This document shows positions 3,716-59,170 of a stretch of 64,000 bases of DNA, one piece after another. How positions within the stretch are numbered: position 1 is the stretch's first letter; every line of letters begins with the position of its first letter. The stretch comes from Berkelbacteria bacterium GW2011_GWE1_39_12. GTDB taxonomy: Bacteria; Patescibacteriota; UBA1384; UBA12157. The translations under genes and the position numbers were made by a program. The DNA is taken from the NCBI GenBank assembly GCA_001029735.1, contig CP011213.1, positions 204,087 through 268,086 on the forward strand, in the 5' to 3' direction. A model generated the notes under the pieces. The model was not told the origin of the DNA. It saw only the letters and a program-made list of their open reading frames with translations, and searched no databases.

Positions 3716-3832
3716 CCCTCCAATTAATAACTTATCTGAACAAAGTCCAGATTCTCCTTCTAAACTAATATAATAATATTATGGCTTTACTCGCAAATCG
3801 CGGAAATTAAATTCTATGATTTAATTATACTA

Positions 3833-4252
3833 CTATATATTTTTTATCTCAATTTGAATTTTTACAATTTCGTCGGCAATCGAAACCTCTAAGCTGTATT
3901 CACCAATTTCTTTATAGTGTTCTTTAAATAAGTTTTCGCTCAGCCCTGTTTCTTTCGCAAATTCTTTTGGTCCGATCGAACCGTACAAGTGACCATTTTT
4001 ATCTGCTTTGGTTAAAATTACGAATTTTTGCCCATTGATTCTCTGTGCCAATGCTCTTTGTTCTTCTATTTTCTCAGCTTCCTTTTTCTTTTTCGCCATC
4101 TTCTCTTCAGCCAATCCTTTCGCACTCGGATCACTTGGCAAAACCGCAATTTTTTTAGGTAACAAAAAATTTAGTGCAAAAGAATTTTTGACTTCTTTAA
4201 TTTCTCCAGCCTTGCCTAAATTTGCTACATCTTGTATTAAAAAGACTTTCAC
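3833..4252 (-). CDS. rplI: 50S ribosomal protein L9
   Basis: MKVFLIQDVANLGKAGEIKEVKNSFALNFLLPKKIAV is L9 N-domain consensus. Confidence 0.85.
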   Translation of the reverse strand: MKVFLIQDVANLGKAGEIKEVKNSFALNFLLPKKIAVLPSDPSAKGLAEEKMAKKKKEAEKIEEQRALAQRINGQKFVILTKADKNGHLYGSIGPKEFAKETGLSENLFKEHYKEIGEYSLEVSIADEIVKIQIEIKNI

Positions 4253-5457
4253 TTTTTTACCTCCTCGAGGGCACGATCTAGCTGTGGATCGTGACCCGCT
4301 TTAATATCATCTTCACTTATTATCACCTTAATATCTGGCTCTATTCCTTGCTTATCAATCGCCCGATCTTTCGGTGTAAACCAATGAGCAATGGTCACTC
4401 TTAAGGTTGAACCGTCTTTTAATTCTTCTAGGCCTTGGACAGAACCTTTGCCGAAAGTTTTTTCACCGATCAAAACTGAGTCATTAAGATCTTGTAACGC
4501 GCCGGCAGTAATTTCAGCTGCCGAAGCTGACCCACCATTAACCAAAACTATAACCTTGTAATCTTTCAAAATTGGGTCAAGGCTGGTTTTTTCTTCTGTA
4601 ACGTGTCCATTTTTATCTTTTTCCCGCACCACAACACTACCCTTTTTTACAAAAAAGCTTGTAACATCAACTGACGAATTTAAATAGCCGCCTGGGTTAC
4701 TGCGCAAGTCTAAAATTATCGCTTTTGGTTTTTTGTCGGCGATTTCTTTTGCCGCCTGCTGCATTAAAGGAGTAGTGTCGTCGCCAAACTGTCCAATTGA
4801 AATATAAGCAATATTATCATCTTTCATCTGCCAATTAACAGATTTTACTGTTATCTTTGCCCTGGTAATTTCGAATTCTTTTGAATCCGTCCAGCCCTTG
4901 CGCATAATTACTAATTTTACCTTTGTATTTTCGTCCCCACGAATCATACTGACAGCCTGATCAATAGTAAGAATGTTTGTGTCGGTACCGTTAATTTTTA
5001 ATATTTGATCTTGAGGTTTCAAGCCCGCTTTTTCTGCCGGAGACTCTGCAAGTGGAGCTACAATAGTAATAACATTATCTTTAACATCCAGCTGTGCTCC
5101 AATGCCAGAAAATTGTCCGGAAAGTTCGTCGCTAAAGGCTTTGGTTTCAGTTGGATCCATAAAGTATGTGTAGGGATCTCCGACTGCACCGACCATTCCT
5201 TTCATCGCGCCGTACAACATTTTTTGCGAATCGAAATTTCCCACATAACTACCGGTCACTTTGTTCCAGGTATCCCAAAAAAGGCTGAAATCTAGATCTC
5301 TCGGTTTATATAGTTCTTTATTAACAATTCTCGGCCTAAGAGTTCTTTCAAAAACTAAATTTTGATGCCCAATTAAATAACCAAAAAATCCAGCAACGAT
5401 GAAAATAGCAATACCGATCCCTATCTGAATACGTTTAATCCTGAGATTTTTCTTCAA
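4249..5457 (-). CDS. ctpA: S41 family C-terminal processing peptidase (PDZ-containing)
   Basis: PDZ segment (GIGAQL...ESPAEKAGLKPQDQILKINGTDT) and the S41 motif ILDLRSNPGGYL. N-terminal TM. Confidence 0.8.
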   Translation of the reverse strand: MKKNLRIKRIQIGIGIAIFIVAGFFGYLIGHQNLVFERTLRPRIVNKELYKPRDLDFSLFWDTWNKVTGSYVGNFDSQKMLYGAMKGMVGAVGDPYTYFMDPTETKAFSDELSGQFSGIGAQLDVKDNVITIVAPLAESPAEKAGLKPQDQILKINGTDTNILTIDQAVSMIRGDENTKVKLVIMRKGWTDSKEFEITRAKITVKSVNWQMKDDNIAYISIGQFGDDTTPLMQQAAKEIADKKPKAIILDLRSNPGGYLNSSVDVTSFFVKKGSVVVREKDKNGHVTEEKTSLDPILKDYKVIVLVNGGSASAAEITAGALQDLNDSVLIGEKTFGKGSVQGLEELKDGSTLRVTIAHWFTPKDRAIDKQGIEPDIKVIISEDDIKAGHDPQLDRALEEVKK

Positions 5458-5459
5458 AA

Positions 5460-6623
5460 TTAATCCTTCTGGTTATTAATTTTTTTAATTATTCCGCCAC
5501 CAACCATTTCGTGCTTGTGGTAAAAAACGATTGACTGACCAGGAGTGATAGCACGTTGGGGTTTTACGAAACTCACTTGGTATTCGCTGCCAACCTTTAT
5601 CGTTACACAATCTTCAATTGGATGGCCGTATCTTATTCTGCCGCCAACTTCTGCTTTTTCTTTCTTTGCAAATTCTGGGCTGATCCAATTAACGTCTTCA
5701 ACAATTAGATTTTTATGGAACAAATCCACATCTTCACCAACAACTAAGGCGTTTTTGCGGCTATCTAATTCTAACACATAGTAAGCATCCGGACCACCCA
5801 AACCGAGGTGCTCTCTTTGACCGATTGTGTAATTGATTAATCCGTCATGTTGACCGAGAACATTACCTTCTTTGTCTAAAATCGGTCCAGATTTAGCAAG
5901 CTTCTTACCGTGGCGACGCAAAAAGTCAGCTACATTACGGTCAGGAATAAAACAGATGCCTTGCGACTCACGCCGCTCGGCTGTCGGTAAATTCATTTTT
6001 CGAGCTAAATCCCTAACTTCAGGCTTTGCCAGATTACCAACCGGAAACAACATTTTAGCCAATTTTTCTTGAGTGAGTGTCCAGAGAAAATAAGATTGAT
6101 CCTTTTTTTCGTCTGAACCTTGATAAAAATGACAAATACCACCTTTTCTTTTTATCTGAGCATAATGGCCAGTGGCTAAGTAGTCTCCCCCCAAATCTAA
6201 AACTTTTTTTAGCAAAACCTCACCCTTAATATCGCGATTGCAAATCACGCAAGGGTTAGGAGTACGGCCCTCTTCGTACTCTTTAATATAATAATCTACC
6301 ACCGCTTTCTTAAATTCATTAGCGAAATTCACAACATAAAAGGGGATGCCCAATTTCTGCGCCACTGCTCTTGCAGCAGTCGCCGCATCTAATGAGCAAC
6401 AGATATTTTCACGTACTAGATCAGTTTTATCATTATCCTCTGTCCAGAATTTCATGAAAATACCAATGACTTCATAGCCTTGGTTTTTTAATAAAGCGGC
6501 AGCAACTGAACTATCAACTCCCCCGCTCATTGCGACAATTACACGTTTTTTCTTTTCGTCAGAAAACAAGGTTCCCTTATTTTTATTAGAAAACAAGCTT
6601 TGCTTATTTTTCATTTGAAGCAT
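5460..6623 (-). CDS. mnmA: tRNA-specific 2-thiouridylase MnmA
   Basis: PP-loop RVIVAMSGGVDSSVAAALL and conserved MnmA cysteines. Confidence 0.85.
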   Translation of the reverse strand: MLQMKNKQSLFSNKNKGTLFSDEKKKRVIVAMSGGVDSSVAAALLKNQGYEVIGIFMKFWTEDNDKTDLVRENICCSLDAATAARAVAQKLGIPFYVVNFANEFKKAVVDYYIKEYEEGRTPNPCVICNRDIKGEVLLKKVLDLGGDYLATGHYAQIKRKGGICHFYQGSDEKKDQSYFLWTLTQEKLAKMLFPVGNLAKPEVRDLARKMNLPTAERRESQGICFIPDRNVADFLRRHGKKLAKSGPILDKEGNVLGQHDGLINYTIGQREHLGLGGPDAYYVLELDSRKNALVVGEDVDLFHKNLIVEDVNWISPEFAKKEKAEVGGRIRYGHPIEDCVTIKVGSEYQVSFVKPQRAITPGQSIVFYHKHEMVGGGIIKKINNQKD

Positions 6624-7446
6624 CCACCAAATTTTTGAATAATTCTGCCACAGTTACCGGTCCGACTCCTCCTGGATTTGGCGTGAAACTTGCAACCTTT
6701 TCATAGACCTCGGGCGAAATATCGCCTACCATTTTTCCGCCAACTTCTGCGGTACCAGCATCGATTACGATAGCGTCTGGTTTCACCATATCTGGTTGGA
6801 TTAATCCCGGCACCCCTGTGGCTGAAATTAAAATATCCGCTAATAATGTTTTTTCTTTCAAGTTAGTAGTTTTAGAGTCGCAAATACTGGCGGTAATATG
6901 TCGCTTCAGAAGTAATCTTTCTAAAGGCTGGCCGACCAAACGGCCATGTCCAATAATTACAAATTTTTTACCTTCGAGATCAATTTTATAAAAATTTAAA
7001 ATATCCAAAATAGCTTGCGCTGTCGGAGCCGGAAATTCACCTATCCCTTGATAAGCGAAACCATCTGTGTCTTTCTTGGGATTGATCAAACCAATTATTT
7101 TTTCAGTCTCCATCCCCTCTGGGAGCGGTAATTGCACAACAATACCGTTTACGTATTTATTTTCATTTAATTCGGAAATAATTTTTTCAACACTTTCCTG
7201 GGAAGAAAATTCAGGCAAGTGATATAACTTAAAACCAATGTTTAATTTTTCTGCGATTTTTTCCTTCAGCTTGACATACGCCAAACTAGCCGGGTTTTCT
7301 CCGACTAAAACGATTGCCAAAAAGGGCCTATCCTTTAAGCCCTCCATTTCCTTTTGCATAGTTTCATAAATTTTTTCTGCTACCGGTTTGCCATATAAAA
7401 TCATTTTTATATTTTCCTCTAGAAAATTCCGCGGCATGCACAGCAT
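6604..7446 (-). CDS. folD: bifunctional methylene-THF dehydrogenase/cyclohydrolase FolD (true start probably about 7404 at MILYGKP)
   Basis: ILYGKPVAEKIYETMQKEMEGL...AIVLVGENPASLAYVKLK. The annotated 5' extension overlaps the upstream gene and covers a CGCGGAATTTTC motif. Confidence 0.85.
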   Translation of the reverse strand: MLCMPRNFLEENIKMILYGKPVAEKIYETMQKEMEGLKDRPFLAIVLVGENPASLAYVKLKEKIAEKLNIGFKLYHLPEFSSQESVEKIISELNENKYVNGIVVQLPLPEGMETEKIIGLINPKKDTDGFAYQGIGEFPAPTAQAILDILNFYKIDLEGKKFVIIGHGRLVGQPLERLLLKRHITASICDSKTTNLKEKTLLADILISATGVPGLIQPDMVKPDAIVIDAGTAEVGGKMVGDISPEVYEKVASFTPNPGGVGPVTVAELFKNLVDASNEK

Positions 7447-7448
7447 GA

Positions 7449-8402
7449 CTACCTCGCAAAAATCTGTGTCACCATTATACCATGATCTTTTGTTTCTATC
7501 ACCCCCACTCCCATTTTAGTGAAGCTAGGGTCTAAAATATTGGCTTTATGCTTTGGACTATTCATTAAGCCAATTTGTGCCAAATCGATCGTCGGTGCCA
7601 AAGCGATGTTTTCAGCAGCTGCGATATATTCTACATGTGCGTTATTTAGTCGATCTAAAAGAACTTCACCAGTCGGGGATTCGTGGGCAAAATAGCCTCT
7701 GATTAACATGTCACGACTTTTAACTCTTGCCACATTTCGAATTAAGATATCTTCCGCTAAAGGCACTAGACCTTCTTTGGCCCTTTCCAAATTCACCATT
7801 GCAAACATTTGCTTTTCAGAGTCACCATCGATAGCTGTATCTGTTGTCGTAAAATCCAATTTAGATGTTTGATCCAAAACAGGATTGGAGGTTAAGTATC
7901 CAACCGTTCCATTTACACCGGCGAAAACCGTTTCTACCTGCGCTTCAATTCTTGCCGTCTGATGGATTAAATATCCGCCGATTAACGATTTTGAAATAGT
8001 TGATTTTAATCCACCCCAGATCGGCATAATCATAAAAAGAATTAGCAAAACGGCGATAAAAACTATTCCCTTTAACGCCGCTGGAAACAAACCGAAATAA
8101 TGGTTTGGCGCCGACTCTTTCAATTTGGACGGAGTGTAGTAAGAAAGATATTTGCCGATAATGTAGAAAAACATTTGAGATAAAAACCAGATGGTCAAGA
8201 AGCTAACTGGCCTGGTATATGAATCTGAAAAATGAATATCTTTTAACAATTGTTCTAAATTCGGATAAAATTTTAAAGCAAAAGCAAATGCAAACAGCAG
8301 GCCGGCAAATTCCCAAGCCAACCTTAAAAAACCCCGTCTGTAACCATCCCAGACGTATATAACAAAAACCGTGATGATAATAAAATCAATCCAATTAGGC
8401 AT
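7449..8402 (-). CDS. polytopic membrane protein with C-terminal CAP/SCP (YkwD-like) domain
   Basis: Multiple N-terminal TM helices. C-terminal GYFAHESPTGEVLLDRLNNAHVEYIAAAENIA resembles the CAP domain. Confidence 0.5.
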   Translation of the reverse strand: MPNWIDFIIITVFVIYVWDGYRRGFLRLAWEFAGLLFAFAFALKFYPNLEQLLKDIHFSDSYTRPVSFLTIWFLSQMFFYIIGKYLSYYTPSKLKESAPNHYFGLFPAALKGIVFIAVLLILFMIMPIWGGLKSTISKSLIGGYLIHQTARIEAQVETVFAGVNGTVGYLTSNPVLDQTSKLDFTTTDTAIDGDSEKQMFAMVNLERAKEGLVPLAEDILIRNVARVKSRDMLIRGYFAHESPTGEVLLDRLNNAHVEYIAAAENIALAPTIDLAQIGLMNSPKHKANILDPSFTKMGVGVIETKDHGIMVTQIFAR

Positions 8403-8469
8403 TCTACCTACATTTTATAATTTTTAAAAATTTTTGTCTTTAATTTTTAAAAATTTCCGCGAATTAAGA

Positions 8470-8898
8470 TTATATCTTAATTCTACCTTTTTTTTTAACT
8501 TCTAAATAGTCGTTAATAGCTTTTTCCAGTGCTTCTTCAGCTAAAACAGAACAATGACGTTTAACTGGCGGCAATCCTCCCAGCGCCTCAATAATCGCTT
8601 GGTTAGAAACTTTCTTTGCTTCCTCGATTGTTTTGCCTATTATGAGATCGGTTAACATTGAAGAAGTAGCGATGGCAGCGCCACAACCGAAAGTTTGAAA
8701 TTTGGCATCGGTAATTATTTCCTTGCCTCCATCAGCTGACGGACTTTTTTCCACTTTTATTTGCAGTTCCATCAAGTCACCACAAACTGGGTTTCCCACT
8801 CTCCCTTTACCGGAGCAGTCTTCAACTTTTCCCATATTGTGCGGATGCTGAAAATGATCCATCACTTTTTCTGAATATAATTTAGAAATATCTGACAT
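8470..8898 (-). CDS. iscU: Fe-S cluster assembly scaffold IscU/NifU
   Basis: Conserved cysteines: GNPVCGDLMEL, FQTFGCGAAIA and the C-terminal HCS. Confidence 0.8.
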   Translation of the reverse strand: MSDISKLYSEKVMDHFQHPHNMGKVEDCSGKGRVGNPVCGDLMELQIKVEKSPSADGGKEIITDAKFQTFGCGAAIATSSMLTDLIIGKTIEEAKKVSNQAIIEALGGLPPVKRHCSVLAEEALEKAINDYLEVKKKGRIKI

Positions 8899-8909
8899 GT
8901 TTCCCTTTC

Positions 8910-10184: not shown

Positions 10185-10336
10185 TCGCCTTTTAACTTAA
10201 GATAATCTTCATAACCCAAAACTACCGCGACCGGCTCTGAATAGCGCATAACTTCATAAGTGTTACCATCCTGAACATCTTTGATTATTTTAGAAATCTG
10301 TGATTGCAATTCATTAATATTTATAATTTTTCTCAT
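10130..10336 (-). CDS. Phd/YefM-like antitoxin-fold small protein, translationally coupled to nifS
   Basis: MRKIININELQSQISKIIKDVQDGNTYEVMRYSEPVAVVLGYEDYLKL matches the Phd/YefM N-terminal pattern. No toxin partner is present. The stop abuts the nifS start. Confidence 0.4.
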   Translation of the reverse strand: MRKIININELQSQISKIIKDVQDGNTYEVMRYSEPVAVVLGYEDYLKLKGECHRCIADLRKIAQKAGE

Positions 10337-10524
10337 AAAGTTTCCCTTAAAAATTTCCGCGGCAAGTTCAAAATTTCAACAGAAATTTCTAACTTGGCTA
10401 TTGTTTTTTTCATATTTTTCTCCCACAACTAATGTAACATTCTATATAACAAAAGTCAATCGCCCCTTATATCAAAAATACGCCCTATATTTTCGGGCGT
10501 ATTTCTGGGTTTAAATTATTGCAA

Positions 10525-12923: not shown

Positions 12924-13403
12924 TTATTTTAAAACTATCTTGTAAGTGGTTACGCCCGAATCGTTAGTACCAGAAATACTGACATTTTGAGCATTTTTGA
13001 AAAATACAATTGAATCGGAAGAGCTAGCACTTATGATCCAGCTCTCTTTAGCTAACTGAGTTTTAAAATAGCTCAATACCACGTTAACAGGTGCTAGGAC
13101 TTTGTATTCGGCGGCAACTGTGCCATCTGCCGCTTTTAAGAAAGAAACTCTCACAGCTTTCGGATATCGAGTTGTGCCAACCGGATCTTCGCCCGAAACA
13201 TCTGTTTTCGGTAAAGCGGCAGTATTTAATCCGAAAAGATTGGCGTTCTGAGTGGAAACACTCCCGACCGCATTTTTAGCTGAAGTACCTAAATTGTCTG
13301 CTTTAACCCTAGCCGAATAATATATAAAATATCCCGCGCCAAAATTTAGCGTTAAAAGGATTAAAATTAAAGATGTTACTAATTTTTTAGACATTAATAC
13401 CAT
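12924..13403 (-). CDS. hypothetical secreted/anchored protein
   Basis: N-terminal TM/signal sequence. No recognisable domain. Confidence 0.3.
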   Translation of the reverse strand: MVLMSKKLVTSLILILLTLNFGAGYFIYYSARVKADNLGTSAKNAVGSVSTQNANLFGLNTAALPKTDVSGEDPVGTTRYPKAVRVSFLKAADGTVAAEYKVLAPVNVVLSYFKTQLAKESWIISASSSDSIVFFKNAQNVSISGTNDSGVTTYKIVLK

Positions 13404-13441
13404 AATTTTTTCTGCAAATTTCCGCGATTAAAGTACTCTTT
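13401..13441 (-). promoter_or_regulatory. AAAGAGTACTTTAATCGCGGAAATTTG-N5-AAAATTATGG element abutting the start codon of 12924-13403
   Basis: Shares the AAAGAGTACTTT plus CGCGGAAATTTG extension with the metG copy. Confidence 0.45.
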
Positions 13442-13447
13442 AATCTA

Positions 13448-14401
13448 TTGTACAAGATTTCCATTAAGACTGCCATCTGCTACAATGAATTAATGAGAAT
13501 ATCCTACAGCGCTTACGACACATACAAAAAGTGCCCCCTTAAATACAAGTTTTCTTATATCGATAAAATCTCTGCACCAAAGCGGCCGGAGTTATTTTTT
13601 GGCGGATTAATTCATAGTGTCGTACAATATGCCTTAAAAAAAGATCCATTGATGCCGTCTTACGAAGAACTGATTAAGTTTTATGAAGAAAATTGGGAAA
13701 GCTCTTTATATAAAGACAAGGATCAAGAAAAGCAATATTTTGATTTTGGTAAAAATATGATTTTTCATTTTCACGGCACCCACAAACCCGGCCTTCGCGA
13801 TATTATTGCCACTGAAAAATATTTTGCCATTCCCCTGTCTGAAAAACACCAACTTTCCGGCGTCATCGATCGCGTCGATAAATTACCAATTGGCGCAATT
13901 GAAATTATTGATTATAAAACCAATAAGAGTTTACCGACTCAGCAGGATATCGATAATGACTTTCAAATGAATTTTTACCAATTAGCTGTTAAAAGCCTTT
14001 GGCCGGAAATCGATAAGGTAAAACTCACCTTCTACTTTTTAAAGCCGAATGTGCAAATGAGTACTACGCGCGACGACTATGCGATCGATATGGCAAAAAA
14101 AGAAATTATTGCAACAGCTGATACAATCACTTCGCAGAAAGATTTTTGCGCAACACCTAACCGCTTTTGTGATTGGTGTGACTTTCAAAATCGCTGCCCC
14201 GCCTTTGCCGATCTTAAAACCAGCGATGATAGAGAGAGTAAAATAATTGAAAAATTTCTCGCTGCTAAAAAAGCGATTGATGTTTTAGAACCAGAGATTA
14301 ATAAAATTATGAATAAATCCGGTAAAGATGTTCTAAAAAGCGGCCAAATTCGTATTTATCGAGATAAAGAAAACGATAACAAGCTCTCAATTAGGGATTA
14401 G
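13448..14401 (+). CDS. PD-(D/E)xK nuclease with C-terminal 4-Cys cluster (Cas4/AddB-like, standalone)
   Basis: N-terminal YKKCPLKYKF. IDRVDKL...IEIIDYKTNK fits the D..ExK motif. C-terminal C-x5-C-x2-C-x5-C (FCATPNRFCDWCDFQNRCP). No cas genes nearby. Confidence 0.55.
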   Translation: MYKISIKTAICYNELMRISYSAYDTYKKCPLKYKFSYIDKISAPKRPELFFGGLIHSVVQYALKKDPLMPSYEELIKFYEENWESSLYKDKDQEKQYFDFGKNMIFHFHGTHKPGLRDIIATEKYFAIPLSEKHQLSGVIDRVDKLPIGAIEIIDYKTNKSLPTQQDIDNDFQMNFYQLAVKSLWPEIDKVKLTFYFLKPNVQMSTTRDDYAIDMAKKEIIATADTITSQKDFCATPNRFCDWCDFQNRCPAFADLKTSDDRESKIIEKFLAAKKAIDVLEPEINKIMNKSGKDVLKSGQIRIYRDKENDNKLSIRD

Positions 14402-16823: not shown

Positions 16824-16880
16824 AGAACTCCAAAAGATTATATTTTTTTTGGGAAAAAATTTCCGCGGTCGCGGCGCGAC

Positions 16881-18287
16881 CTATTTTCTTCTTGGAAATA
16901 ATGGTTCAAAGTGACCAGTCGAAAGCTGCTCGGTCATTTTGCGTGAAGTGTCCGGCATAAATGGCTCTAATAAATTTGCCACTTCGGACAAATTGACAAG
17001 TAAGCCCTTGAGCAGTTCTGCTAACTTAGTTGGATTAGTTTTGGCTAGTTCCCATGGGCGTTCCATATCAATTTCTTGATTGGCTTCGGTGATCATTTTC
17101 CAAATTAAATTTAACGCCTCATTAAATTTTAAGTCTTCAATCGCTCTATTTATTTCGGGAAAAGTTTTTTCCGGCACAGCATATTTCCATTCAATTCCGT
17201 ATTTTTGTTGCATTACGAGCACTCTTTGAAAAAGGTTGCCCAAATCGTTAGCTAAATCTGATTGATAGCGTTTTTCAAAACGATCGATGGAAAAATCGCC
17301 ATCACCGCCAAACGGAATTTCACGGAACATGTAATAGCGCAATGGATCGACACCGTAAACCTTGGCAATCTCAATCGGGTCAATAACATTCCCAATTGTT
17401 TTAGAAATCTTCTGACCATTAACCGTTAAAAAACCATGAATAAATAATTTTTCCGGTAATTCATAACCCCCGGCAAGTAACATCGCTGGCCAAATAATCG
17501 CATGGAAACGAAAAATATCTTTACCGATTAATTGCAAAGTTGGTGGCCAAAGTCCGCGACTGCCCGTAATGTAATTTAGTAAAGCATCAACCCAAACATA
17601 AATTGTTTGTGTTTTGTCCCATGGCACTTGAATACCCCAATCAACTTTACTTCTTGAAATAGCTAAATCTCTCAAGGGTTCTTTGGCTAAAAATTTAAAT
17701 ATCTCATTTTTTCTTGATTCCGGTTCGATCACCAGCTGACCACTTTGGATCGCTTCCATCAACTGATTTTGGTACTTGGAAAGTTTGAAAAAATAAATGT
17801 TTTCCGATATCGATTCACATTTTTTCTTATGTAGCGGACACATATCGCCTGGCTCTAGATCTTCTTGCACTTTGTATTCTTCGCAGCCAACACAATACAG
17901 GCCCTCGTAATTGCCTTGGTAAATTTCACCGTTGTCATAAAGCTTTTGTAAAAATTCCTGCACGAATTTTTCGTGCGATGGATCTGTGGTTCGAACAAAA
18001 TTATCGTATTTTATATTTAAATAAGACCAAGCCGCTTGATACTTGAGCGCGATTTCATCGGCATATTTTTTAGGCGAAACGCTCATCTTTTTAGCAGCTT
18101 GAGCTACTTTCATGCCATGCTCGTCTGTACCCGTTAGAAAAAATACTTCCGCACCTCGGTTGCGCCAATAGCGAGCCAAAACATCGGCAGCCAGCTTTTC
18201 GTAAGCATGACCAATGTGTGGCGCCGCACTAACATAATCGATTGCTGTAGTGATAAAAAATCTTCCTGTTTCCATTAATAACTCCAA
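16881..18287 (-). CDS. metG: methionyl-tRNA synthetase
   Basis: HIGH motif (HIGHAYEKLAADV) and KMSKS-like KISKTIGNV. Confidence 0.9.
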   Translation of the reverse strand: MELLMETGRFFITTAIDYVSAAPHIGHAYEKLAADVLARYWRNRGAEVFFLTGTDEHGMKVAQAAKKMSVSPKKYADEIALKYQAAWSYLNIKYDNFVRTTDPSHEKFVQEFLQKLYDNGEIYQGNYEGLYCVGCEEYKVQEDLEPGDMCPLHKKKCESISENIYFFKLSKYQNQLMEAIQSGQLVIEPESRKNEIFKFLAKEPLRDLAISRSKVDWGIQVPWDKTQTIYVWVDALLNYITGSRGLWPPTLQLIGKDIFRFHAIIWPAMLLAGGYELPEKLFIHGFLTVNGQKISKTIGNVIDPIEIAKVYGVDPLRYYMFREIPFGGDGDFSIDRFEKRYQSDLANDLGNLFQRVLVMQQKYGIEWKYAVPEKTFPEINRAIEDLKFNEALNLIWKMITEANQEIDMERPWELAKTNPTKLAELLKGLLVNLSEVANLLEPFMPDTSRKMTEQLSTGHFEPLFPRRK

Positions 18288-18319: not shown

Positions 18320-18372
18320 ATAGTATAATTTGTTTTACAAATTTCCGCGTAAAAGTACTCTTTTATTATACC
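18320..18372 (-). promoter_or_regulatory. conserved upstream element AAAGAGTACTTTTA-CGCGGAAATTTG-N5-CAAATTATACTAT, upstream of metG
   Basis: Near-identical GGAAATTTG-N5-CAAATTATA core at 26151-26178 and 58194-58220. Looser CGCGGAA(A)TTT copies elsewhere. Confidence 0.5.
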
Positions 18373-18416
18373 TTAAAAATCGTAAAATTAAAACTGTAAA
18401 TTTTAGTAAAATTAAG

Positions 18417-19895: not shown

Positions 19896-20662
19896 TTATA
19901 GAGATTGAACCACTGGTCAAGTGTTAAATCTTCTGCTCTGAGGGTCGGTTTAATTTCTGACAGCTCTAAAATTTTAATCGTTTCTTCTTTAGTCCAATGA
20001 AAGGTTGCAGAAAGCGAATTGTGAATTTGTCGACGCTTAGCAGCTAAACCAGCTTTCACGATTTTAAAGAACATCTGCTCGTCAACATTTCTTTTTTCAT
20101 TTTTTATTTTTAATTTAATAACAGAGCTATCAACGTTTGGCACCGGATAAAAATCTTTTCTCGGCACTTGCAGAACAATTTCCGCGTCAGCGTAAAACTC
20201 TACTATTATAGTCAGTAGTCCCCGCTCGGAATTGCCTGGCGCAGCACAGATTCTTTCTGCCACTTCTTTTTGAACCATCAAAACCATTGACTCTGGTTTT
20301 ATCTCGCCTTCAATAAATTTACGGATCAAAGGCGAAGTAATGTTGTAAGGAATGTTGGCGACAACTTTGAATTTACCGGTTTCAAACAAAGACAGGTCAA
20401 ACCACAAAGCGTCTTGATGAACTATTTTTAAATTTTTAGGCTCACCAATATTTCTCTTAAGAGTCGTAATTAAATCGTAATCTTTTTCCACCGCAAAGAT
20501 AGCCGCGCCAGTTTTGATCAACGCTTCGGTTAAAATGCCTGTTCCCGGACCGATTTCAATAATTTTATCGTCGGCTTTAATTTCCGCCGCTTCAATTATT
20601 TTGGTGACGACTTCGGGATTTTTTAAGAAATTCTGTCCTAATTGTTTTTTAATTTTAAACAT
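19874..20662 (-). CDS. rsmA: 16S rRNA (adenine1518/1519-N6)-dimethyltransferase
   Basis: LGQNFL and EIGPGTGILTEAL SAM-binding motifs. Confidence 0.9.
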   Translation of the reverse strand: MFKIKKQLGQNFLKNPEVVTKIIEAAEIKADDKIIEIGPGTGILTEALIKTGAAIFAVEKDYDLITTLKRNIGEPKNLKIVHQDALWFDLSLFETGKFKVVANIPYNITSPLIRKFIEGEIKPESMVLMVQKEVAERICAAPGNSERGLLTIIVEFYADAEIVLQVPRKDFYPVPNVDSSVIKLKIKNEKRNVDEQMFFKIVKAGLAAKRRQIHNSLSATFHWTKEETIKILELSEIKPTLRAEDLTLDQWFNLYNCIAKKS

Positions 20663-25844: not shown

Positions 25845-25871
25845 ACAAAAAAGGCGCGCAACTGCGCGCCG
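25845..25871 (-). terminator. rho-independent terminator ending a non-coding minus-strand transcript
   Basis: Minus strand GGCGCGCAGTTGCGCGCC followed by TTTTTTG. It lies upstream of the start of 24859-25824. Confidence 0.75.
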
Positions 25872-26211
25872 CTACAACAAGAATATTATAGTAAATTAAA
25901 AGGCGCGATCGAGATGCGGTCCATTAATTTTAATTATAAACCGATCGTCGCGCCCCTATGATGTGGGCAAAGTATTTGGCTTTGTCCCTATCACAGATTT
26001 TCATCTTCAATAAGGACCACCTAACTAAACCCGTTCTCCTACTATATATAAATACGGTAAGAGGAAAAGCTCGAGGTCCCTCCTTGAACTTTTCTCCTCA
26101 CCGTCTATTCCCTTCCTTTTTTAAAGATCTATCAATTCATCAATTCCATGATTATAATTTGTGAAGCAAATTTCCGCATTGATACTTAATTTATTAAGTA
26201 TCAATTATACT
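25872..26211 (-). ncRNA. candidate approximately 340-nt non-coding transcript (or micro-ORF RNA) between the sigma-factor gene and ORF 24859-25824
   Basis: Bounded by a promoter and a strong terminator. No ORF over 25 codons on the minus strand. Internal stems such as GGCGCGA...TCGCGCC. Family not identified. Confidence 0.35.
26179..26204. promoter_or_regulatory. perfect 12-bp inverted repeat TTGATACTTAAT-tt-ATTAAGTATCAA (operator-like)
   Basis: Read directly from the sequence. Sits between the promoter and the motif element. Confidence 0.6.
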
Positions 26212-26240
26212 ATTGTACAGCATTTTGACGAGCTTGTCAA
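26212..26240 (-). promoter_or_regulatory. sigma-70-like promoter TTGACA-17 nt-TACAAT for the non-coding transcript
   Basis: Minus strand TTGACAagctcgtcaaaatgctgTACAAT. Downstream are the IR operator 26179-26204 and a CGCGGAAATTTG-type element. Confidence 0.55.
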
Positions 26241-34604: not shown

Positions 34605-35003
34605 TTGAAAAAAGGTCTTACCATAATTGAGATCATTGTCGCCATTACGGTTTTTACAATCGGTGTTTTAGGCGTAGCTGCGTTTTTTGGAAATTCTAGC
34701 CGGTTGGCAGGAGCGGCCGGAAGAATCAGTGTAGCCAGTAATTTAGCCCAAGGATTAATTGATCAAGAGGTGAATAAAAGCTATGACAGTTTAACTCCGG
34801 GTACCGGCATTAAAACTAATTTATCATTAGAAAATACTAACCCTTTTTATCAATATCAAAAACAGGTTGACATAATCTTAATAGATTCCAATCTTGCAAT
34901 CAGCGGTACCGATATCGGGCTTAAAAAAATTATTGTGACGATTTACTATAATGAAGGACAAGATGAAAAAAATGTTCAGATGGCCACAATTAAATCGAAG
35001 TAG
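34605..35003 (+). CDS. minor pilin/pseudopilin
   Basis: MKKGLTIIEIIVAITVFTIGVLG is a prepilin-type N-terminus. Confidence 0.6.
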   Translation: MKKGLTIIEIIVAITVFTIGVLGVAAFFGNSSRLAGAAGRISVASNLAQGLIDQEVNKSYDSLTPGTGIKTNLSLENTNPFYQYQKQVDIILIDSNLAISGTDIGLKKIIVTIYYNEGQDEKNVQMATIKSK

Positions 35004-35598
35004 CCAAGCCCAAGCTTGTCGCGGAATTTTCTGCGGAAAATATAGCCAAGGTTTAACTTTAGTCGAAGTGATTGTCGCTATCTCTTTAGCTAGCTTGGTG
35101 CTAATCAGCTTATACCAAGTTTATGCTACAAGCTATCAGTCATATCGAAGAAACATTAGTAAAGCCGAGATCAATCAAAATGCGCGAATTGCCTTGGAAA
35201 GAATTACAAGAGATTTGCGCCAAACTAATGAAATAGTTACCACTTTGCCAGCAACTAATACTGATCCCCTAAATCCAGCACCTTCCAATTTAGAGTTTGT
35301 AGATGGACACAATACCACTAAGCTTCAATACATTAATTATGTTTATGCAGAAGGAGAATTGCACCGCGAAGTTGTCCATTATTACTTCAGCACAAACACG
35401 AGTGAATGGGTGGCTTGGAACGCCAAAGATCAGTACGACAACCCACCGCAATCATCAATTGACGAAGATGCGATCAAAGCCGATAAACTCACTTCTTTGT
35501 CATTTTTCGGCACAAACATTATCAGTATTGTTTTAACTGTAGAAGAAAATGGACAAACTCAAACTTATCAAACGCAAGTCTTGGGGAGAAATATTTAA
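34975..35598 (+). CDS. minor pilin-like protein (long leader; start uncertain)
   Basis: ...SQGLTLVEVIVAISLASLV is a prepilin motif preceded by an approximately 20-aa leader. The 5' region contains a TTGTCGCGGAATTTTC motif. Confidence 0.45.
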   Translation, partial: FRWPQLNRSSQAQACRGIFCGKYSQGLTLVEVIVAISLASLVLISLYQVYATSYQSYRRNISKAEINQNARIALERITRDLRQTNEIVTTLPATNTDPLNPAPSNLEFVDGHNTTKLQYINYVYAEGELHREVVHYYFSTNTSEWVAWNAKDQYDNPPQSSIDEDAIKADKLTSLSFFGTNIISIVLTVEENGQTQTYQTQVLGRNI

Positions 35599-37736: not shown

Positions 37737-37800
37737 AAGCGGAATTTATTGGAGAATAAATGATAAATATGGCCAAGCTATCGCTTGTCGCGGAGTTTAA

Positions 37801-38376
37801 ATGATAAACATTAACCTATTACCACCAGATATTAAAATCAGAGCTAAAAAAACAAAACAATCGGCTAGTGTTTTTGGGATTTGTTTAGTGGTTTTAATTT
37901 TCCTTGGCGTAACCGCTTTTCTTTTAAATAATTACAAAACAAGTATTCTACAAGCTGAACTAGACACAAACCAAGCTGACTTAACCAGAGCAAATCAAAG
38001 TTTGGGCAACTTCAATGAACTCCAGAAAAAGGCAATTTTTCTTAATGACAGAGCCCAATTAGCCACGACAATCGAAAATAGTCGCTCGCCATGGTCTGCC
38101 ATTTTACAAGAATTGATCAATTCAGTTCCGACTAACGTTCAGTTCGTATCGTTAAACGGAGATTTAACCAAAGCGCCAAACTTTACTTTACAAGGTACGA
38201 CCGACTCAGAGCGGGATGCTATAAAATTCAAGGATAAATTGGAAAGCTCCACTTATTTCAAGGATGTTGCATTTAAGAGTTCGTCGGCATCAGCTGCAGG
38301 TTCCAACACTGGTCTTAGTTTTAGTCTGGAATTTAACCTTGAGCATGTGGTAAAAACTAGCAAAGCGGCCAAATGA
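37801..38376 (+). CDS. pilN: PilN-like bitopic pilus alignment protein
   Basis: Short cytoplasmic N-terminus, one TM helix, a coiled coil and a periplasmic domain. Follows pilM. Confidence 0.55.
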   Translation: MININLLPPDIKIRAKKTKQSASVFGICLVVLIFLGVTAFLLNNYKTSILQAELDTNQADLTRANQSLGNFNELQKKAIFLNDRAQLATTIENSRSPWSAILQELINSVPTNVQFVSLNGDLTKAPNFTLQGTTDSERDAIKFKDKLESSTYFKDVAFKSSSASAAGSNTGLSFSLEFNLEHVVKTSKAAK

Positions 38377-48460: not shown

Positions 48461-48461
48461 A

Positions 48462-54002: not shown

Positions 54003-54044
54003 TTTCCGGTCCCCCTTTCATCCATGTCGAATTTTCAACGTACA

Positions 54045-54237: not shown

Positions 54238-54738
54238 TTTCGTCAGGTTGAATGTTGCAATGGGAAAGAAATCTCCAGTTGCACTTGTCGCATACTGGGA
54301 AATCTCCAACAAATCTCGGAAACAATCAAAGGCTTGAAGGCCGTTAAACAGGAGGTTGGATCCGACAATATTCGTAAATCCAGGTGCGTCTTTTTTATAG
54401 ACACCGATGAAATCTGTGTCTGTGCCATGTCGACGCAAGAGAATCATTGGCTGATCGGAACGCGTAAACGTCACGTCATGTAACTCTTCTTGTTTTTCAG
54501 CAATCTGCATGTCCAGCTCGGCAAGATAGGCCTCCGTAATAGCCACATCCTTTCTTTGAGAAAGATGCAACAACATACTTTTAGCCGATTCAGCCGTTTC
54601 AAAAGGTGTTATACCATTGATCGCCAATGGTTCGTAAATGTTCTCCTCACCTACGGTCGCTCGCCCAAAAATAATTTGAGCAAATCCAACCATCATCTGG
54701 GCTTTAGCCACGCCCACAAAACCTCTGATTCTTTCCAT
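54226..54738 (-). CDS. hypothetical protein
   Basis: No motif. The C-terminus overlaps the terminator hairpin at 54213-54237. Confidence 0.3.
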   Translation of the reverse strand: MERIRGFVGVAKAQMMVGFAQIIFGRATVGEENIYEPLAINGITPFETAESAKSMLLHLSQRKDVAITEAYLAELDMQIAEKQEELHDVTFTRSDQPMILLRRHGTDTDFIGVYKKDAPGFTNIVGSNLLFNGLQAFDCFRDLLEISQYATSATGDFFPIATFNLTKIPG

Positions 54739-54838
54739 TTGCGGAGCCCCCTTTCTGAATTCTATCGATTGGAAGTATTCATTTTACATCAAAAAATAGC
54801 AAAAAGTCAAACATCTCTCATTTTTTGCTATTTATTTT

Positions 54839-56647: not shown

Positions 56648-56704
56648 AAAAAACTCCGACTTGTTGTATATAAATTATACACAACAAGTCGGAGTTATAC
56701 AAAG

Positions 56705-57571
56705 TCAGGAGATTACACCCCTAACTATCGAGAAGATACCATGAGGCTCTGTATAAAACTTTGCCTCTTCTATTCCACCCTCTCTGATAATGCGCTTGAA
56801 CTCTGGTAACGGCCGATAGATCATATCCCAATCAGCAATATCAGCCAGAAAATACATTTCAGAGTTGGGATGGATATGAGCTGACACAAGAACCGCTCCA
56901 CGAGTAGACATGGCTTCAATACTATGAATAAGTCGGACTATCATGCTGTCTTTGAGATAGTCGAAAAGTCCAACTATTTCAACGATATTTGGCTCAAAAT
57001 CCTTAGCAGTCGATCCTGGGCGAACTAGGTTTCCTTTGCGCCATTCAATGTTCTTTATACCATATTTAACAGCCAACTTCTTGCTGTATTCGATTGCGGT
57101 TTCATCAACATCTATCGCCAGAACTGAAACATTTTCATCGATACCTTCGATCGCTTCAAATACACTCTGAGCTGATCCACAAGCCAAAGAAAGTATCCTT
57201 GCTTCTCCATCAGTTCTGATCTTTTCAAGCACAGCTTCTCGGATTAACTTAACCACAATCTGTTTTCTGTTTCTAAGTGCTTGAGCGGATCGAACATTCA
57301 TCCAGAAGTTTTCAAGGATTCCCCAAATACCTTTTTTAGAAGGGCACCAGTTGTAAACAGCCTCAAGAGCAGGCCATCTTGCTGCCCCTTTGCGAACCTG
57401 CATTACAAACTCACTATACTTGTCGTAAAACCACGCATAGTACTCCAATTCACTAACTGATCTGAGCTTTTTCCATCTCACCCACCGTGCAAAAATCAGC
57501 GTAGGAATATAGAATAAGATGTACAACATTATCTTGTATTGAAACCTATAACCTTCAGGTCCTCGTTCCAT
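56705..57571 (-). CDS. class I SAM-dependent methyltransferase with N-terminal TM
   Basis: Motif I ILSLACGSAQ and motif II LAIDVDETAIEY. Confidence 0.5.
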   Translation of the reverse strand: MERGPEGYRFQYKIMLYILFYIPTLIFARWVRWKKLRSVSELEYYAWFYDKYSEFVMQVRKGAARWPALEAVYNWCPSKKGIWGILENFWMNVRSAQALRNRKQIVVKLIREAVLEKIRTDGEARILSLACGSAQSVFEAIEGIDENVSVLAIDVDETAIEYSKKLAVKYGIKNIEWRKGNLVRPGSTAKDFEPNIVEIVGLFDYLKDSMIVRLIHSIEAMSTRGAVLVSAHIHPNSEMYFLADIADWDMIYRPLPEFKRIIREGGIEEAKFYTEPHGIFSIVRGVIS

Positions 57572-57844
57572 TTTCCCCCACCTTTCCTATATTTTCAAAC
57601 TGCATCCGCATGAGTGCGGAATGAGTGTTTTTGAGCATTTTGCATACTCCAAAATCACCCATAATGTTACCATAAAAATAGGTAAAAGTCAAGGGTTTAG
57701 AGCACATTATTTGTTAGAGTATTGTTTTGATTATACTTTTATTTTGTCTGCCGGACATTTTTTTAGTAACATTAATTTAAGAAATGTCCTCATCTACTTG
57801 AAGCCGCACAACTTTTATCCTTCATGACTTTAAAAACTAGATTT

Positions 57845-58150
57845 TTAGACTTTTTCTAGCTTGAGTACCCTATCAGAGAGATCGTCAACAAATTTAATTT
57901 CGCTTTTGGCTAAAGTTTCCACTCGATTTAATGAAATCTGCAAATCATCAATTTTTTCCTCCTGTCCGTCAAGTCTTTCATCAATTCCATCTAGTCTTTC
58001 ATCAATTCCATTAAACCTTCCATCGATTATTTTAAATTGTTCATCATGTTTTTTTAGGGTATCTTTAATCTCTTGCATCTGCGGCAAAACAATCTGTTCT
58101 AAAACCTCTCCCATTATTAACCTAACATCCTTTTTATCTTCATTGGTCAT
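57845..58150 (-). CDS. small coiled-coil protein (annotated ORF to 58234. Start probably MTNEDKK at about 58150)
   Basis: IDERLDGIDERLDG repeats. RBS GAGGGAG plus ATG at 58150. Confidence 0.3.
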   Translation of the reverse strand: MTNEDKKDVRLIMGEVLEQIVLPQMQEIKDTLKKHDEQFKIIDGRFNGIDERLDGIDERLDGQEEKIDDLQISLNRVETLAKSEIKFVDDLSDRVLKLEKV

Positions 58151-58193
58151 TTTATCTCCCTCATAATTTCCGAAATTAAGCACCCTGGCTTTA

Positions 58194-58220
58194 ATTATAA
58201 TTTGCTTTGCAAATTTCCAC
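58194..58220 (-). promoter_or_regulatory. GGAAATTTG-N5-CAAATTATAAT element upstream of 57845-58150
   Basis: Minus strand GTGGAAATTTGcaaagCAAATTATAATTAAAG. A second partial copy, CGGAAATTAT, lies 16 nt before the ATG. Confidence 0.45.
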
Positions 58221-58318
58221 AAATTTTTCCTCAAAATTTTCGTGCCAAACAGCAGCGAATAGGGTTAAGAATTCTTGTACTAAAAAGGGAGAACTGACAA
58301 GCTCTCCCATACAGGTTC

Positions 58319-58561
58319 TCATGATTTTGCCACCATATAGGCGTCAATTGGCGCCCATACGTAGACAATGAGCAGCAACGGAACGCCGAGGATGGCGCCG
58401 ATTAAAGTGGAAGTTAGTCCCCACCCAAACAACGCCATGATCAGGAAGGCAATCCCTTTTCCAACTGACCCAGCATAGAATTGCCCAGCGCCAGGCCAGA
58501 GGATTGAAAGGATTGCTGCTACTATCGTGCTCTTTCCTTCTTTCTGCAACCAAATCACCAC
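58319..58561 (-). CDS. TM2 domain-containing small membrane protein
   Basis: LWPGAGQFYAGSVGKGIAFL matches the TM2 domain core. Confidence 0.4.
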   Translation of the reverse strand: MVIWLQKEGKSTIVAAILSILWPGAGQFYAGSVGKGIAFLIMALFGWGLTSTLIGAILGVPLLLIVYVWAPIDAYMVAKS

Positions 58562-58625
58562 CTTTTAAAACAGAATTATAACAGTGTCACATTGGGGAAT
58601 CGTGAGCTTGTTAGCTCCTTCTCAT

Positions 58626-58934
58626 TCACTTGCGTTGCATCTCTATTCTCATGGTACCATCCTGAACCACTAGCTTCCCGCTTGGGCTCAGTTTGGCCTT
58701 GACTGGGTCGCGGCCGCCGGCCATCGACATCACAATATGATCGCCTTCGGCGTGCCATTCCACCTTGTCGCCATGACCAGGTGCACCCTGAAATCCAGTG
58801 CCGTCTTTGTAAAGCGCAATTTCACCACCACCAGGAATTTGCCAATTACCGACATACTTTGACCTCGGGGACGAACATCCCACGATAACAACAAGAACAA
58901 CTGCGGATAAAAGTAATACCACTAAGCGTTTCAT
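58626..58934 (-). CDS. small lipoprotein (GC-rich)
   Basis: Signal peptide with lipobox LVIVGC. About 50% GC, unlike its surroundings. Confidence 0.4.
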   Translation of the reverse strand: MKRLVVLLLSAVVLVVIVGCSSPRSKYVGNWQIPGGGEIALYKDGTGFQGAPGHGDKVEWHAEGDHIVMSMAGGRDPVKAKLSPSGKLVVQDGTMRIEMQRK

Positions 58935-59087
58935 ACTTTACCTCCGACATAGATTTTCTTTCTTGGCTCAACAGCCGCCCATACTATACGCTTAACTCAT
59001 CAATAAGTCAACCCCCTTACCCCAATTTACCGATGCGCTTTCGTAGTAAATAGATTTGCGGTAAAATTAACAAATGGATACTTAATT

Positions 59088-59170
59088 TTGTCGCGGAATT
59101 TTCCTGGAAAGGAAAATATGGACAAAAATGATTGTCGCGGAATTTTCCTTGAAAGGAAAATATGGACAAA
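59088..59170 (+). repeat. 44-bp tandem duplication of the motif, RBS and start-codon region of the PaaX-like gene
   Basis: TTGTCGCGGAATTTTCCTgGAAAGGAAAATATGGACAAA (59088-59126) and TTGTCGCGGAATTTTCCTtGAAAGGAAAATATGGACAAA (59132-59170). The first ATG opens a 25-codon out-of-frame uORF. Confidence 0.85.

Follow-up and report, generated by a model that had tools for sequence, protein, structure and literature searches.

A family of two-hairpin CGCGGA repeats at stop and start codons in Berkelbacteria and other Patescibacteria

Two families of intergenic repeats, REP2 in Neisseria and IR-A in Borrelia, are known to lie 5' of many unrelated genes and to supply them with a ribosome-binding site (RBS) and an ATG (PMC3184786). 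In this paper we describe a family that resembles these repeats in several respects and departs from them in others. It was found in a 64,000-nt stretch, which we call the window, of the 915-kb genome of Candidatus Berkelbacteria bacterium GW2011_GWE1_39_12 (assembly GCA_001029735.1, contig CP011213.1, positions 204,087 to 268,086, forward strand). The host is thus a member of the Patescibacteria, or candidate phyla radiation (CPR); the window has a G+C content of about 39% and no tRNA gene, and its genes are packed very tightly. A first-pass annotation of the window had noted a recurrent CGCGGAA motif near gene starts. We find that this motif belongs to a larger unit of about 45-55 nt, of which it is the invariant linker; the unit reads 5'-AT(A/G)G, a hairpin P1 of variable but covarying sequence, CGCGGA, an A/T hairpin P2, and AT(G/A)-3'.

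Like REP2 and IR-A, these units are short repeats directly 5' of unrelated genes, they carry an RBS and an initiation codon, and they can form stem-loops. REP2 and IR-A, however, contain promoter hexamers and are conserved in sequence, whereas the units have no promoter geometry, a variable and covarying P1, and an invariant CGCGGA; unlike those repeats, they often begin at an upstream stop codon inside an operon, and their host belongs to another phylum. The REP and SMAG palindromes offer a second comparison, for they too have an xTAG 5' of the hairpin, an extragenic location, tandem clusters, a varying copy number and a possible effect on mRNA stability. But they are G+C-rich, conserved in sequence within each genome, usually 3' of genes in either orientation, and mobilised by RAYT proteins, whereas the units have two hairpins and a variable P1 and tend to lie 5' of genes, and the proteins that we scanned included no RAYT. 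The miniature inverted-repeat transposable elements (MITEs), such as Correia/CREE, ERIC and RUP, are likewise small, non-autonomous and foldable, often lie 5' of genes and influence expression; for them, presence/absence polymorphism has been taken as evidence of mobility (PMC3184786). MITEs nevertheless have terminal inverted repeats and fixed target-site duplications (e.g. TA), whereas the units lack the former, the direct repeats beside some copies vary in length, and the units are far shorter. Finally, the units recall the hairpins that sequester a Shine-Dalgarno (SD) sequence, such as fourU and ROSE thermometers and translational operators, in that a U-rich strand pairs with the SD or pre-start region in a weak A-U hairpin by the AUG. 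Thermometers, however, are single-locus leaders with no invariant upstream hexamer, no tandem arrays and no spread through the genome, in all of which the units differ.

A search of the literature by sequence and by topic found no paper that describes a CGCGGA two-hairpin element. Rfam 15, searched at the gathering threshold, has no family in the 64-kb window, and a search of one tandem pair of units at E up to 10 gave only noise. By these two measures the family has not been described before. The explanation towards which we lean is that the units are REP- or MITE-like intergenic insertion elements that have been co-opted as structured translation-initiation regions and intercistronic spacers.

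Anatomy and covariation of the two-hairpin unit

Allowing at most one mismatch, the sequence CGCGGAAATTT occurs 14 times in the window, compared with 3.44 ± 1.78 times in dinucleotide shuffles, and none of 100 shuffles reaches 14. Thus, the recurrence of the motif near gene starts, as first annotated, is borne out. Five of the matches are exact; they all lie on the minus strand, each of them upstream of a minus-strand gene. Matches at 20176, 26338 and 42836 are due to chance, being inside coding sequence or without hairpins, and the membership of a match at 1340 is doubtful; we count about 11-13 true family members in the window. The positions given originally for the motif agree with ours to within 1-3 nt at 3799, 7423-7433, 8451-8461, 10351-10361, 13416-13426 and 18339-18349, and those at 26168-26178, 35020-35030, 59092 and 59136 agree as well. 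Three others had to be corrected: 16848-16858 is off by about 9 nt and should be 16857-16867, the copy placed at 37781-37791 should read CGCGGAG at 37789, and 58165-58177 is a weak look-alike, the real copy being at 58196-58218.

The hairpin P1 lies nearly always directly 5' of the (C)GCGGA, and its sequence changes from copy to copy: examples are ATTAAAG/CTTTAAT, TAAAAG/CTTTTA, GTCGCG/CGCGAC, CAAGC/GCTTG, and a 12-bp stem at 26178. Several features that had been listed separately turn out to be parts of this architecture. The palindrome GGTCGCG-N-CGCGACC is present at 16867 and is itself a P1, as is the common AAAGAGTACTTT extension, which is exact at 13430 and 18352. The A/T inverted repeat 3' of the motif is real and covaries. 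Three cores described as near-identical, GGAAATTTG-N5-CAAATTATA, are in fact exact over 23 nt (at 18324, 26153 and 58196), where 0.05 would be expected. The predicted folds give P1 and P2 together in most of the window contexts, especially at 15 C.

In order to study the family outside the window, we collected public metagenome contigs that match CGCGGAATTTTC-N3-8-GAAAATAT, with at least 115 stretches among the matches listed. Viral contigs served as a control for chance; there, a looser pattern gave 60 single matches, which scales to an expectation of about 10 for the metagenome scan. The metagenome matches split into two groups. Group 1 is a different, longer element, to which we return below. 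Group 2 comes from A/T-rich contigs and has exactly the architecture of the window units, with frequent tandems of a period of about 44 nt. The group-2 sample for all counts of stops, starts, SD sequences and covariation consists of 384 kb of Patescibacteria-like contigs. Thus the family, which had been proposed as a small intergenic repeat family from the window alone, recurs across Patescibacteria.

Because P1 is not part of the search pattern, its presence can be tested without bias. Of 55 group-2 matches, 34 have a perfect stem of 4 bp or more that ends 1-2 nt before CGCGG; the same holds for 2 of 50 chance matches in viral contigs and, with the anchor moved, for 0-2 of 55. We also built a covariance model, R1, from seven metagenome units only, and searched the window with it, with filters off. 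Although R1 contains no window sequences, it finds 11 window copies at E<0.06 (Table 1), and it finds 77 units in the group-2 contigs. In the alignment of these 77 units, 94.5% of the cells at paired positions can pair; in shuffles the figure is 73%. Fitting the alignment to the model raises this pairing artificially, but the P1 test above, which is independent of the model, is in agreement. The covariation score is 0.421, compared with 0.108 in shuffles (none of 500 reaches the observed value) and at most 0.064 with slid partners, and changes on both sides of a pair are seen in all six P1 pairs and in five of the seven P2 pairs. Among viral control contigs that were preselected for the core-plus-P2 pattern, the maximum R1 score is 28.7 bits; scores below about 30 bits are therefore convincing only when P1 is present as well. 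We conclude that the two-hairpin repeat family is real and specific.

The unpaired positions of the 77 units are strongly conserved. The 5' tetranucleotide is A-T-R-G (ATAG in 54 units, ATGG in 17), and ATAG, ATGG or GTAG precedes P1 in about 95% of units, while the sequence of P1 itself is not conserved; CGCGGA is found in nearly 100%, and the 3' end is A-T followed by G (42) or A (32). The loops of P2 are 73% purine. The units have no terminal inverted repeats, and in the consensus the 5' arm of P1 and the 3' arm of P2 with its ATR are not inverted copies of each other. Nor do the units resemble intrinsic terminators: a terminator scan picks out only two of them, through alternative pairings, and P1 is mostly A/T-rich and followed by CGCGGA, unlike the hairpin and U-run of the classical terminators that exist elsewhere in this genome. 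The consensus also does not fit a hammerhead-like three-way junction, a K-turn, a CsrA site or a mini-riboswitch of the preQ1 type.

Placement at stop and start codons

In 31 of the 77 units (about 40%), the 3' ATG opens an open reading frame (ORF) of at least 60 codons; seven of the ORFs that start at a unit's ATG equal independent gene calls exactly, two of them named as from a Patescibacteria group bacterium. Most of the units that end in ATA have a start codon within the next 3-25 nt. At the other end, in 12 units the 5' ATAG supplies the stop codon (TAG) that closes a long upstream ORF in frame; examples from the window are the units at 7407, 16838 and 34995, which begin at the stops of the CvpA/CAP gene, metG and a pilin-like gene. 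The distances from CGCGG to the start codon in the window, as now measured, are 12, 23, 25, 26, 29, 44 and about 74 nt.

The two kinds of 3' end also differ in P2. An SD-like string (GGAG, GAGG, AGGA, AAGG or GGGA) lies in the loop or 3' arm of P2 in 25 of the 31 start-type units, compared with 11 of the 46 others (Fisher p = 1.6e-6). In the non-start units the loops are short (such as TGAC or TGCG) and the 3' end is ATAA or ATAG; the next gene has an SD of its own further on. A link to translation initiation, which the first-pass annotation had raised, is thus upheld in 31 units, in which the 3' ATG is the start codon and P2 then has the SD-like loop. The orientation of the units is biased as well. 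In co-directional gaps 33 units run with the genes and 3 against them, and divergent gaps hold 11-13 units as against 3-4 in convergent gaps. Together these counts indicate that the association is with the downstream start.

About a third of the units are not followed by a gene start. One complete orphan unit in a distant Berkelbacteria locus (L003:6131-6310; L-numbers denote loci and contigs outside the window) is directed towards a convergent tRNA gene, whose 3' end it faces, and its ATGG is not followed by an ORF.

The genes behind the units are diverse. Among 42 downstream proteins there are 61 Pfam families, none of which occurs more than twice. They include ribosomal proteins L4, L6, L16, L18 and S8, GAPDH and a GTPase of the EF-Tu family, and also MetG, FolD, PBP, MurG-type transferases, RuvX and pilus genes.

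These placements bear on the other half of the original interpretation, namely that the motif is a promoter, or the operator of a transcription factor such as the PaaX-like protein encoded at 59162-59893, and that it marks a regulon. Two observations are in keeping with this idea. Tandem units stand before the PaaX-like gene of the window and beside its L003 homologue, and units stand before a PaaX_M gene in L219; moreover, in several window copies a TATA-like sequence lies about 22 nt after CGCGG, 3' of P2. The spacing from CGCGG to the TATA-like sequence is not constant, however; the values range between 19 and more than 27 nt. Often P2 is directly followed by the start codon, so that no room is left for a transcription start. 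When the 70 nt upstream of 74 units are profiled, only an A-rich run and the ATRG appear, with no fixed -35 or -10 element, and a promoter scan places no sites on the units as a class. The window has expression signals of the ordinary kind (GGAGG ribosome-binding sites, TTGACA-N17-TAnAAT promoters, hairpin-plus-T-run terminators), and canonical promoters of this type lie upstream of some units, e.g. at 26240-26212. Units are found within ribosomal-protein operons, with the stop codon of the upstream gene inside the unit. As for an operator, the flanks of CGCGGA are conserved as base-paired structure and not as sequence, and the functions of the downstream genes are unrelated. Given the covarying structure, the unrelated genes and the stop codons inside units, we consider the promoter and operator interpretation to be largely refuted and very improbable in what remains of it.

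Two specific versions of that interpretation were rejected on their own. Autoregulation by the PaaX-like protein is contradicted by its closest orthologues (72-73% identity; L006-L009), which have plain promoters and no unit upstream, and by the unrelated downstream genes. A promoter for an alternative sigma factor, or a leaderless promoter, was rejected after the hexamer spacing of all window copies had been inspected by hand, together with the upstream profile; there is no fixed element.

Genes for PaaX_M proteins, which have a Cas2-like domain, do adjoin units at three unrelated loci (window 59162-59893, L003:107-826 and L219:812-1360). Two of the three lie beside tandem pairs, and in L003 the pair has the opposite orientation; short homologues are annotated as Cas2 in Patescibacteria. 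Since PaaX_M genes are abundant, this co-occurrence may be due to chance; alternatively, it may be a clue to a factor that handles the units.

Other readings of the conserved positions fare no better. A polar signal of the uptake-sequence, Chi or KOPS type was dismissed since the orientation of the units follows genes rather than the replichore; four plus-strand units, for example, lie within a plus-strand gene cluster inside one skew domain. An upstream small ORF or leader peptide (MAKLxLVAEF) was dismissed since ATAG, and not ATGG, is what most units have and the covariation of P1 is that of a hairpin, and the TAG as a recoding signal since in-frame stops follow soon after.

A different possibility is that the units are purely cis-regulatory RNA in 5' leaders and intercistronic regions, which gate the translation of many genes, and that mobility is irrelevant. 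P1, CGCGGA and P2 would then be bound together by a global RNA-binding regulator, or by the ribosome itself, and both their spread and their retention would be due to host need. An invariant single-stranded hexamer between covarying stems is what one would expect of such an element, and so are the co-orientation with genes, the preference for 5' positions, and the presence of an SD and a start codon inside P2. The units without a gene start after them do not fit, and it is implausible that, without some mechanism of copying, a complex 45-nt motif would have arisen independently at very many sites, of which the 64-kb window alone has 11-13. Further evidence on both sides comes from a comparison of related genomes.

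Gain, loss and the making of the palindromes

Four Berkelbacteria relatives (L302-L305), whose MetG proteins are 70-77% identical to that of the window, are syntenic with positions 7-28 kb of the window. They contain two units in 76 kb, compared with six in the window's matching 20 kb, so that unit density differs widely among related genomes. Five sites that are filled in the window are empty in the relatives. At the empty junctions in L302-L304, among them that between the nifU-like and CvpA/CAP genes, the genes are separated by gaps of 0-21 nt with an ordinary SD, or have overlapping stop and start codons: the gap is 0-19 nt between the CvpA/CAP gene and folD, 10-13 nt between metG and the EamA gene, and 13-21 nt upstream of metG. 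In L305, some of the junctions have gaps of 97-321 nt between called genes, in which R1 finds no unit. Conversely, L304 has a unit at 8535-8594, before an Nramp gene, that is not in the window. We conclude that units are gained and lost on the time scale of species divergence. The emptiness of most orthologous sites, and the difference in density, count against a purely cis-regulatory RNA. One unit is shared: that at 13400-13453 is matched in L302 (13950-14001, 45.9 bits) by a unit with similar flanks and a wholly different P1 that is nonetheless paired, which does accord with selection on an RNA structure.

The 210-nt gap before metG in L305 (L305:9791-10000) contains, in place of a unit, another short A/T-rich repeat, which is built on TTCGAAATT/AATTTCGAA. 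The intergenic repeat family that occupies a given site may differ among Berkelbacteria.

Several features of the copies suggest insertion. Tandem arrays are common, both in the window (59061/59113) and elsewhere (L210, L211, L225, L226, L241 and others). The 10 nt 5' of the ATRG match the unit's own 3' end at 4.65 positions, compared with 4.15 for the ends of other units (p<0.0002), and when tandem copies are left out the likeness persists (4.19 versus 3.84, p = 0.006). Some copies have direct repeats of 9-14 nt, whose length varies, and most copies have none; in L246, for example, AGGAGAAAATAT(A/G)G stands on both sides of the unit. The pilN unit of the window provides another clear view of such a duplication. 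Its 29-nt core (P1 CCAAGC/GCTTG, CGCGGA and GTTTA) lies between direct repeats of 12-13 nt, AATGATAAA(T/C)AT, with AATGATAAAtAT and AATGATAAAcAT on either side of the core, and the flank match upstream of the ATRG extends to nine of ten compared positions. Like the tandem arrays, these flank duplications count against an account in which mobility plays no part.

At the same time, the arms of the hairpins are in some cases complementary to sequence that was already in place. In the nifU unit of the window, the 5' arm of P1 consists of conserved codons for the C-terminus of NifU (GRIKI*), and in L261 it consists of those for the C-terminus of SecA (KCHGK*). Similarly, the 5' arms of P2 fit each gene's own pre-start bases, as with GTTTA/TAAAC at pilN, where P2 pairs with pilN codons 2-3, and AATTATT/AATAATT at L206:6018; the fit of the P2 arms can also be cited in favour of cis-regulatory RNA. 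Of the stem pairs, 96% are Watson-Crick, and G.U pairs and A.C mismatches are equally common (11 of each); such statistics are DNA-like. Since the arms complement native flanks and the stems have these statistics, the data suggest that the formation or repair of the palindromes takes place in DNA, and that selection on RNA alone would not suffice. Template switching on quasi-palindromes is an established mutational route, and it could serve as an example of such a process. Given this lack of a G.U excess along with the empty sites, the tandems and the units without a start, we regard a purely cis-regulatory RNA as possible but on the whole unlikely.

It may also be asked whether the units do anything for the host at all. 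They could be a purely selfish family of DNA palindromes, with single-stranded hairpins of the REP or IS200 kind, whose position at gene boundaries reflects a preference for ATRG targets and the purging of harmful insertions. The DNA-like palindrome statistics, the conserved xTAG 5' of the hairpin as in GTAG-REPs, the gain and loss, tandem arrays and flank similarity, and the existence of orphan and antisense copies all lend themselves to this account. The strong link between an SD-like P2 loop and a start ATG, in contrast, is an adaptation to translation, and the structure is kept despite complete turnover of the P1 sequence. In addition, no RAYT (Y1 HUH) transposase was noticed among the proteins scanned with Pfam, i.e. 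those of the 64-kb window and those downstream of units, a scan that was not genome-wide. We therefore consider a family with no host function improbable.

The explanation that we favour, a co-opted insertion element, combines the two. Short non-autonomous units would have inserted at A-rich sites ending in ATAG or ATGG, on the coding strand, with stop codons and ribosome-binding or start regions as typical targets, and the insertions that survive would be those that left gene expression intact. Judging by its position and sequence, an inserted unit would be transcribed within the mRNA. P1 would then form a hairpin right after the upstream stop codon, and in P2 the U-rich arm that the unit brings with it (AUUUUCC, or a variant particular to the locus) would pair with the purine-rich stretch 5' of the start codon; in the roughly 40% of units described above, the last triplet of the unit would be the start codon, with the SD-like sequence in the loop or 3' arm of P2. 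Most likely, such a unit would damp or gate the access of ribosomes and shield mRNA ends. CGCGGA would be the recognition site of a putative factor, either a mobilising enzyme or an RNA-binding protein.

Several points weigh against this explanation. No transposase or other mobilising enzyme was found in the 64 kb of the 915-kb genome that we scanned. The units lack terminal inverted repeats and a fixed-length target-site duplication, and a clear duplication of the flanks is seen in a minority only. P1 differs completely between copies in one genome while CGCGGA is invariant, which is not the mark of recent copy-and-paste, but of either long-term structural selection or a templated re-making of the arms. 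Simple insertion does not explain the two cases, nifU and secA, in which the 5' arm of P1 is native coding sequence. The absence of an excess of G.U pairs argues, weakly, against selection at the level of RNA. Finally, it is from sequence that we infer the transcription of the units, their effect on translation and any processing.

The complementarity of the arms to native flanks raises a further, more speculative possibility. Since the arms are the reverse complement of those flanks, they point to a templated mechanism, and the units might represent a new kind of mobile or self-propagating element that targets stop and start contexts and tailors its arms to each site, by templated fold-back or template switching and with an enzyme that recognises CGCGGA. 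We hold this to be rather unlikely at present.

Copies in the window, a longer and possibly related element, and implications

The copies in the window are listed in Table 1, together with their R1 scores and the features of each site.

Table 1. Copies of the two-hairpin unit in the 64-kb window, with scores from the covariance model R1.
Position	Strand	Copy	R1 score (bits)	E-value	Structure and context
59113..59165	+	Complete unit	56.8	7e-15	3' ATG (59162) starts PaaX-like (Cas2-like domain) gene (Pfam); P2 ATTTTCC-TTGAAA-GGAAAAT, with AAAGGA as SD
59061..59121	+	Upstream member of tandem pair	46.6; 14.5 in other register (59064-59112)	0.057 (other register)	44-nt period with unit 59113; ends in ATGG without a gene after it
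34995..35045	+	Unit	43.9	6e-11	Begins at TAG stop of upstream pilin-like gene (147-codon ORF); canonical P1 CCAAGC/GCTTG; in frame within long 5' extension of next pseudopilin ORF (N_methyl motif)
37764..37813	+	pilN unit (PilN by Pfam)	38.1	3.6e-9	
37739..37761	+	Degenerate partial unit	9.4 (weak alone)	1.9	GCGGA and ATTTATT-GGAG-AATAAAT; pairs with duplicated pilN ribosome-binding region
7407..7457	-	Unit, CvpA/CAP gene to folD	43.2	1e-10	Begins at TAG stop of upstream 321-codon ORF; GAGGA in P2 loop; folD ATG 6 nt past unit
8438..8489	-	Unit, nifU-like gene to CvpA/CAP gene	16	0.019	P1 5' arm (GAATTAAGAT) is native nifU coding end; P2 long, A/T-only
10333..10406	-	Unit	24.1; 19.6 as 10345-10406	1.5e-3 (as 10345-10406)	3' ATG starts Phd/YefM antitoxin gene (Pfam); P1 loop long, P2 weak
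13400..13453	-	Unit in divergent gap	33	1.2e-7	3' ATG starts 159-aa membrane protein; P1 ATTAAAG/CTTTAAT
16838..16889	-	Unit	23.2	1.2e-4	Begins at metG TAG stop (475-codon ORF); P1 GTCGCG/CGCGAC; EamA gene retains own GGAG SD 3' of unit
18323..18374	-	Unit upstream of metG	30.9	5.8e-7	P1 TAAAAG/CTTTTA, P2 AATTTG/CAAATT; metG start about 50 nt onward, with own SD
26152..26213	-	Variant unit (TGCGGA, 12-bp P1)	11.7	0.4 (marginal)	Exact 23-nt core
58195..58240	-	Variant unit	16.5	0.014	Exact core; without CGC (TTGTGGAAATTTG...); P2 same as in units 18323 and 26152
3776..3819	+	Degenerate copy without P1	11.7	0.4 (marginal)	Antisense to both neighbouring genes; possibly a decaying insertion

Some of these sites deserve comment. 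At pilN, the upstream copy of the flank keeps an SD and an ATG, and thereby opens an upstream ORF of 14 codons (37775-37820, plus strand) whose TGA overlaps the true ATG. A second upstream ORF, of about 26 codons (10336-10416, minus strand), runs through the unit before the Phd antitoxin gene. Both have an SD of their own and a terminal TGA that overlaps the true start (ATGA), which suggests translational coupling made by insertion.

At the unit 34995..35045, the in-frame ATGs of the pseudopilin ORF (34951-35598, plus strand) all lie upstream, and the interval from the unit to the prepilin cleavage motif (G|LTLVE) contains no canonical start. Unless a non-canonical start is used, 42 nt of the unit (14 codons) would lie in an unusually long leader peptide.

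The variant unit at 26152..26213 forms the 5' end, with its 12-bp P1 and TGCGGAAATTTG..., of a stretch of about 360 nt (25845-26206, minus strand) that contains no convincing ORF. This stretch is bounded by a near-consensus promoter, TTGACA-N17-TACAAT (26240-26212), and a strong terminator (GGCGCGCAGTTGCGCGCC and a T-run, 25870-25853). Its predicted fold has an energy of -123 kcal/mol, far better than that of shuffles (z = -7.96). No Rfam family matches the stretch, which is probably a structured non-coding RNA that has escaped annotation.

We now return to group 1. Its members share the 32-nt core and have it within a strongly conserved hairpin, GGUCGCGGA-AUUUUCC...GGAAAAU-A-UCYGUGACC, which follows one or more other hairpins; the exact core is CGCGGAATTTTCC-N4-GGAAAATAT, and the whole element is 100-250 nt long. 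CGCGGA is here paired to UCYGUG through fixed G.U pairs, which point to RNA. Examples, from the subset L187-L301, are L212:5848-5946, L189:1-200 and 3477-3676, and L199:4591-4790. The contigs have a G+C content of 34-61%, and the element adjoins tRNA genes; in L212 it lies between two tRNAs and is followed by a 19-nt copy of the tRNA 3' end. In other cases two copies in inverted orientation, 2-3.5 kb apart, enclose cargo such as a restriction-modification methylase, which lies next to a serine recombinase. No Rfam family matches it, even in a permissive search. The two elements do not mix in our sample: no two-hairpin units were found in the 321 kb of group-1 contigs.

The Patescibacteria make up a large share of bacterial diversity, and have tiny, packed genomes; almost all of them are uncultured, and little is known of their gene expression. 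In the Berkelbacteria window, about one gene in six starts behind a unit. Across the family, some essential genes (among them those for ribosomal proteins, GAPDH, MetG and FolD) appear to draw their RBS and start codon from one. The units bear on the annotation of start codons, as they bring decoy ATGs and short upstream ORFs with them. They could also serve to mark lineages, and the CGCGGA hexamer could provide a handle for a new RNA- or DNA-binding factor, while the turnover of P1 with its pairing kept offers a natural system for studying how palindromes are maintained. Should the notion of an element with tailored arms prove true, the longer, tRNA-associated structured RNA that has the 32-nt core in other organisms would be a relative of the units or their source, and the units would amount to a genome-wide layer of translational gating in ultra-small bacteria.

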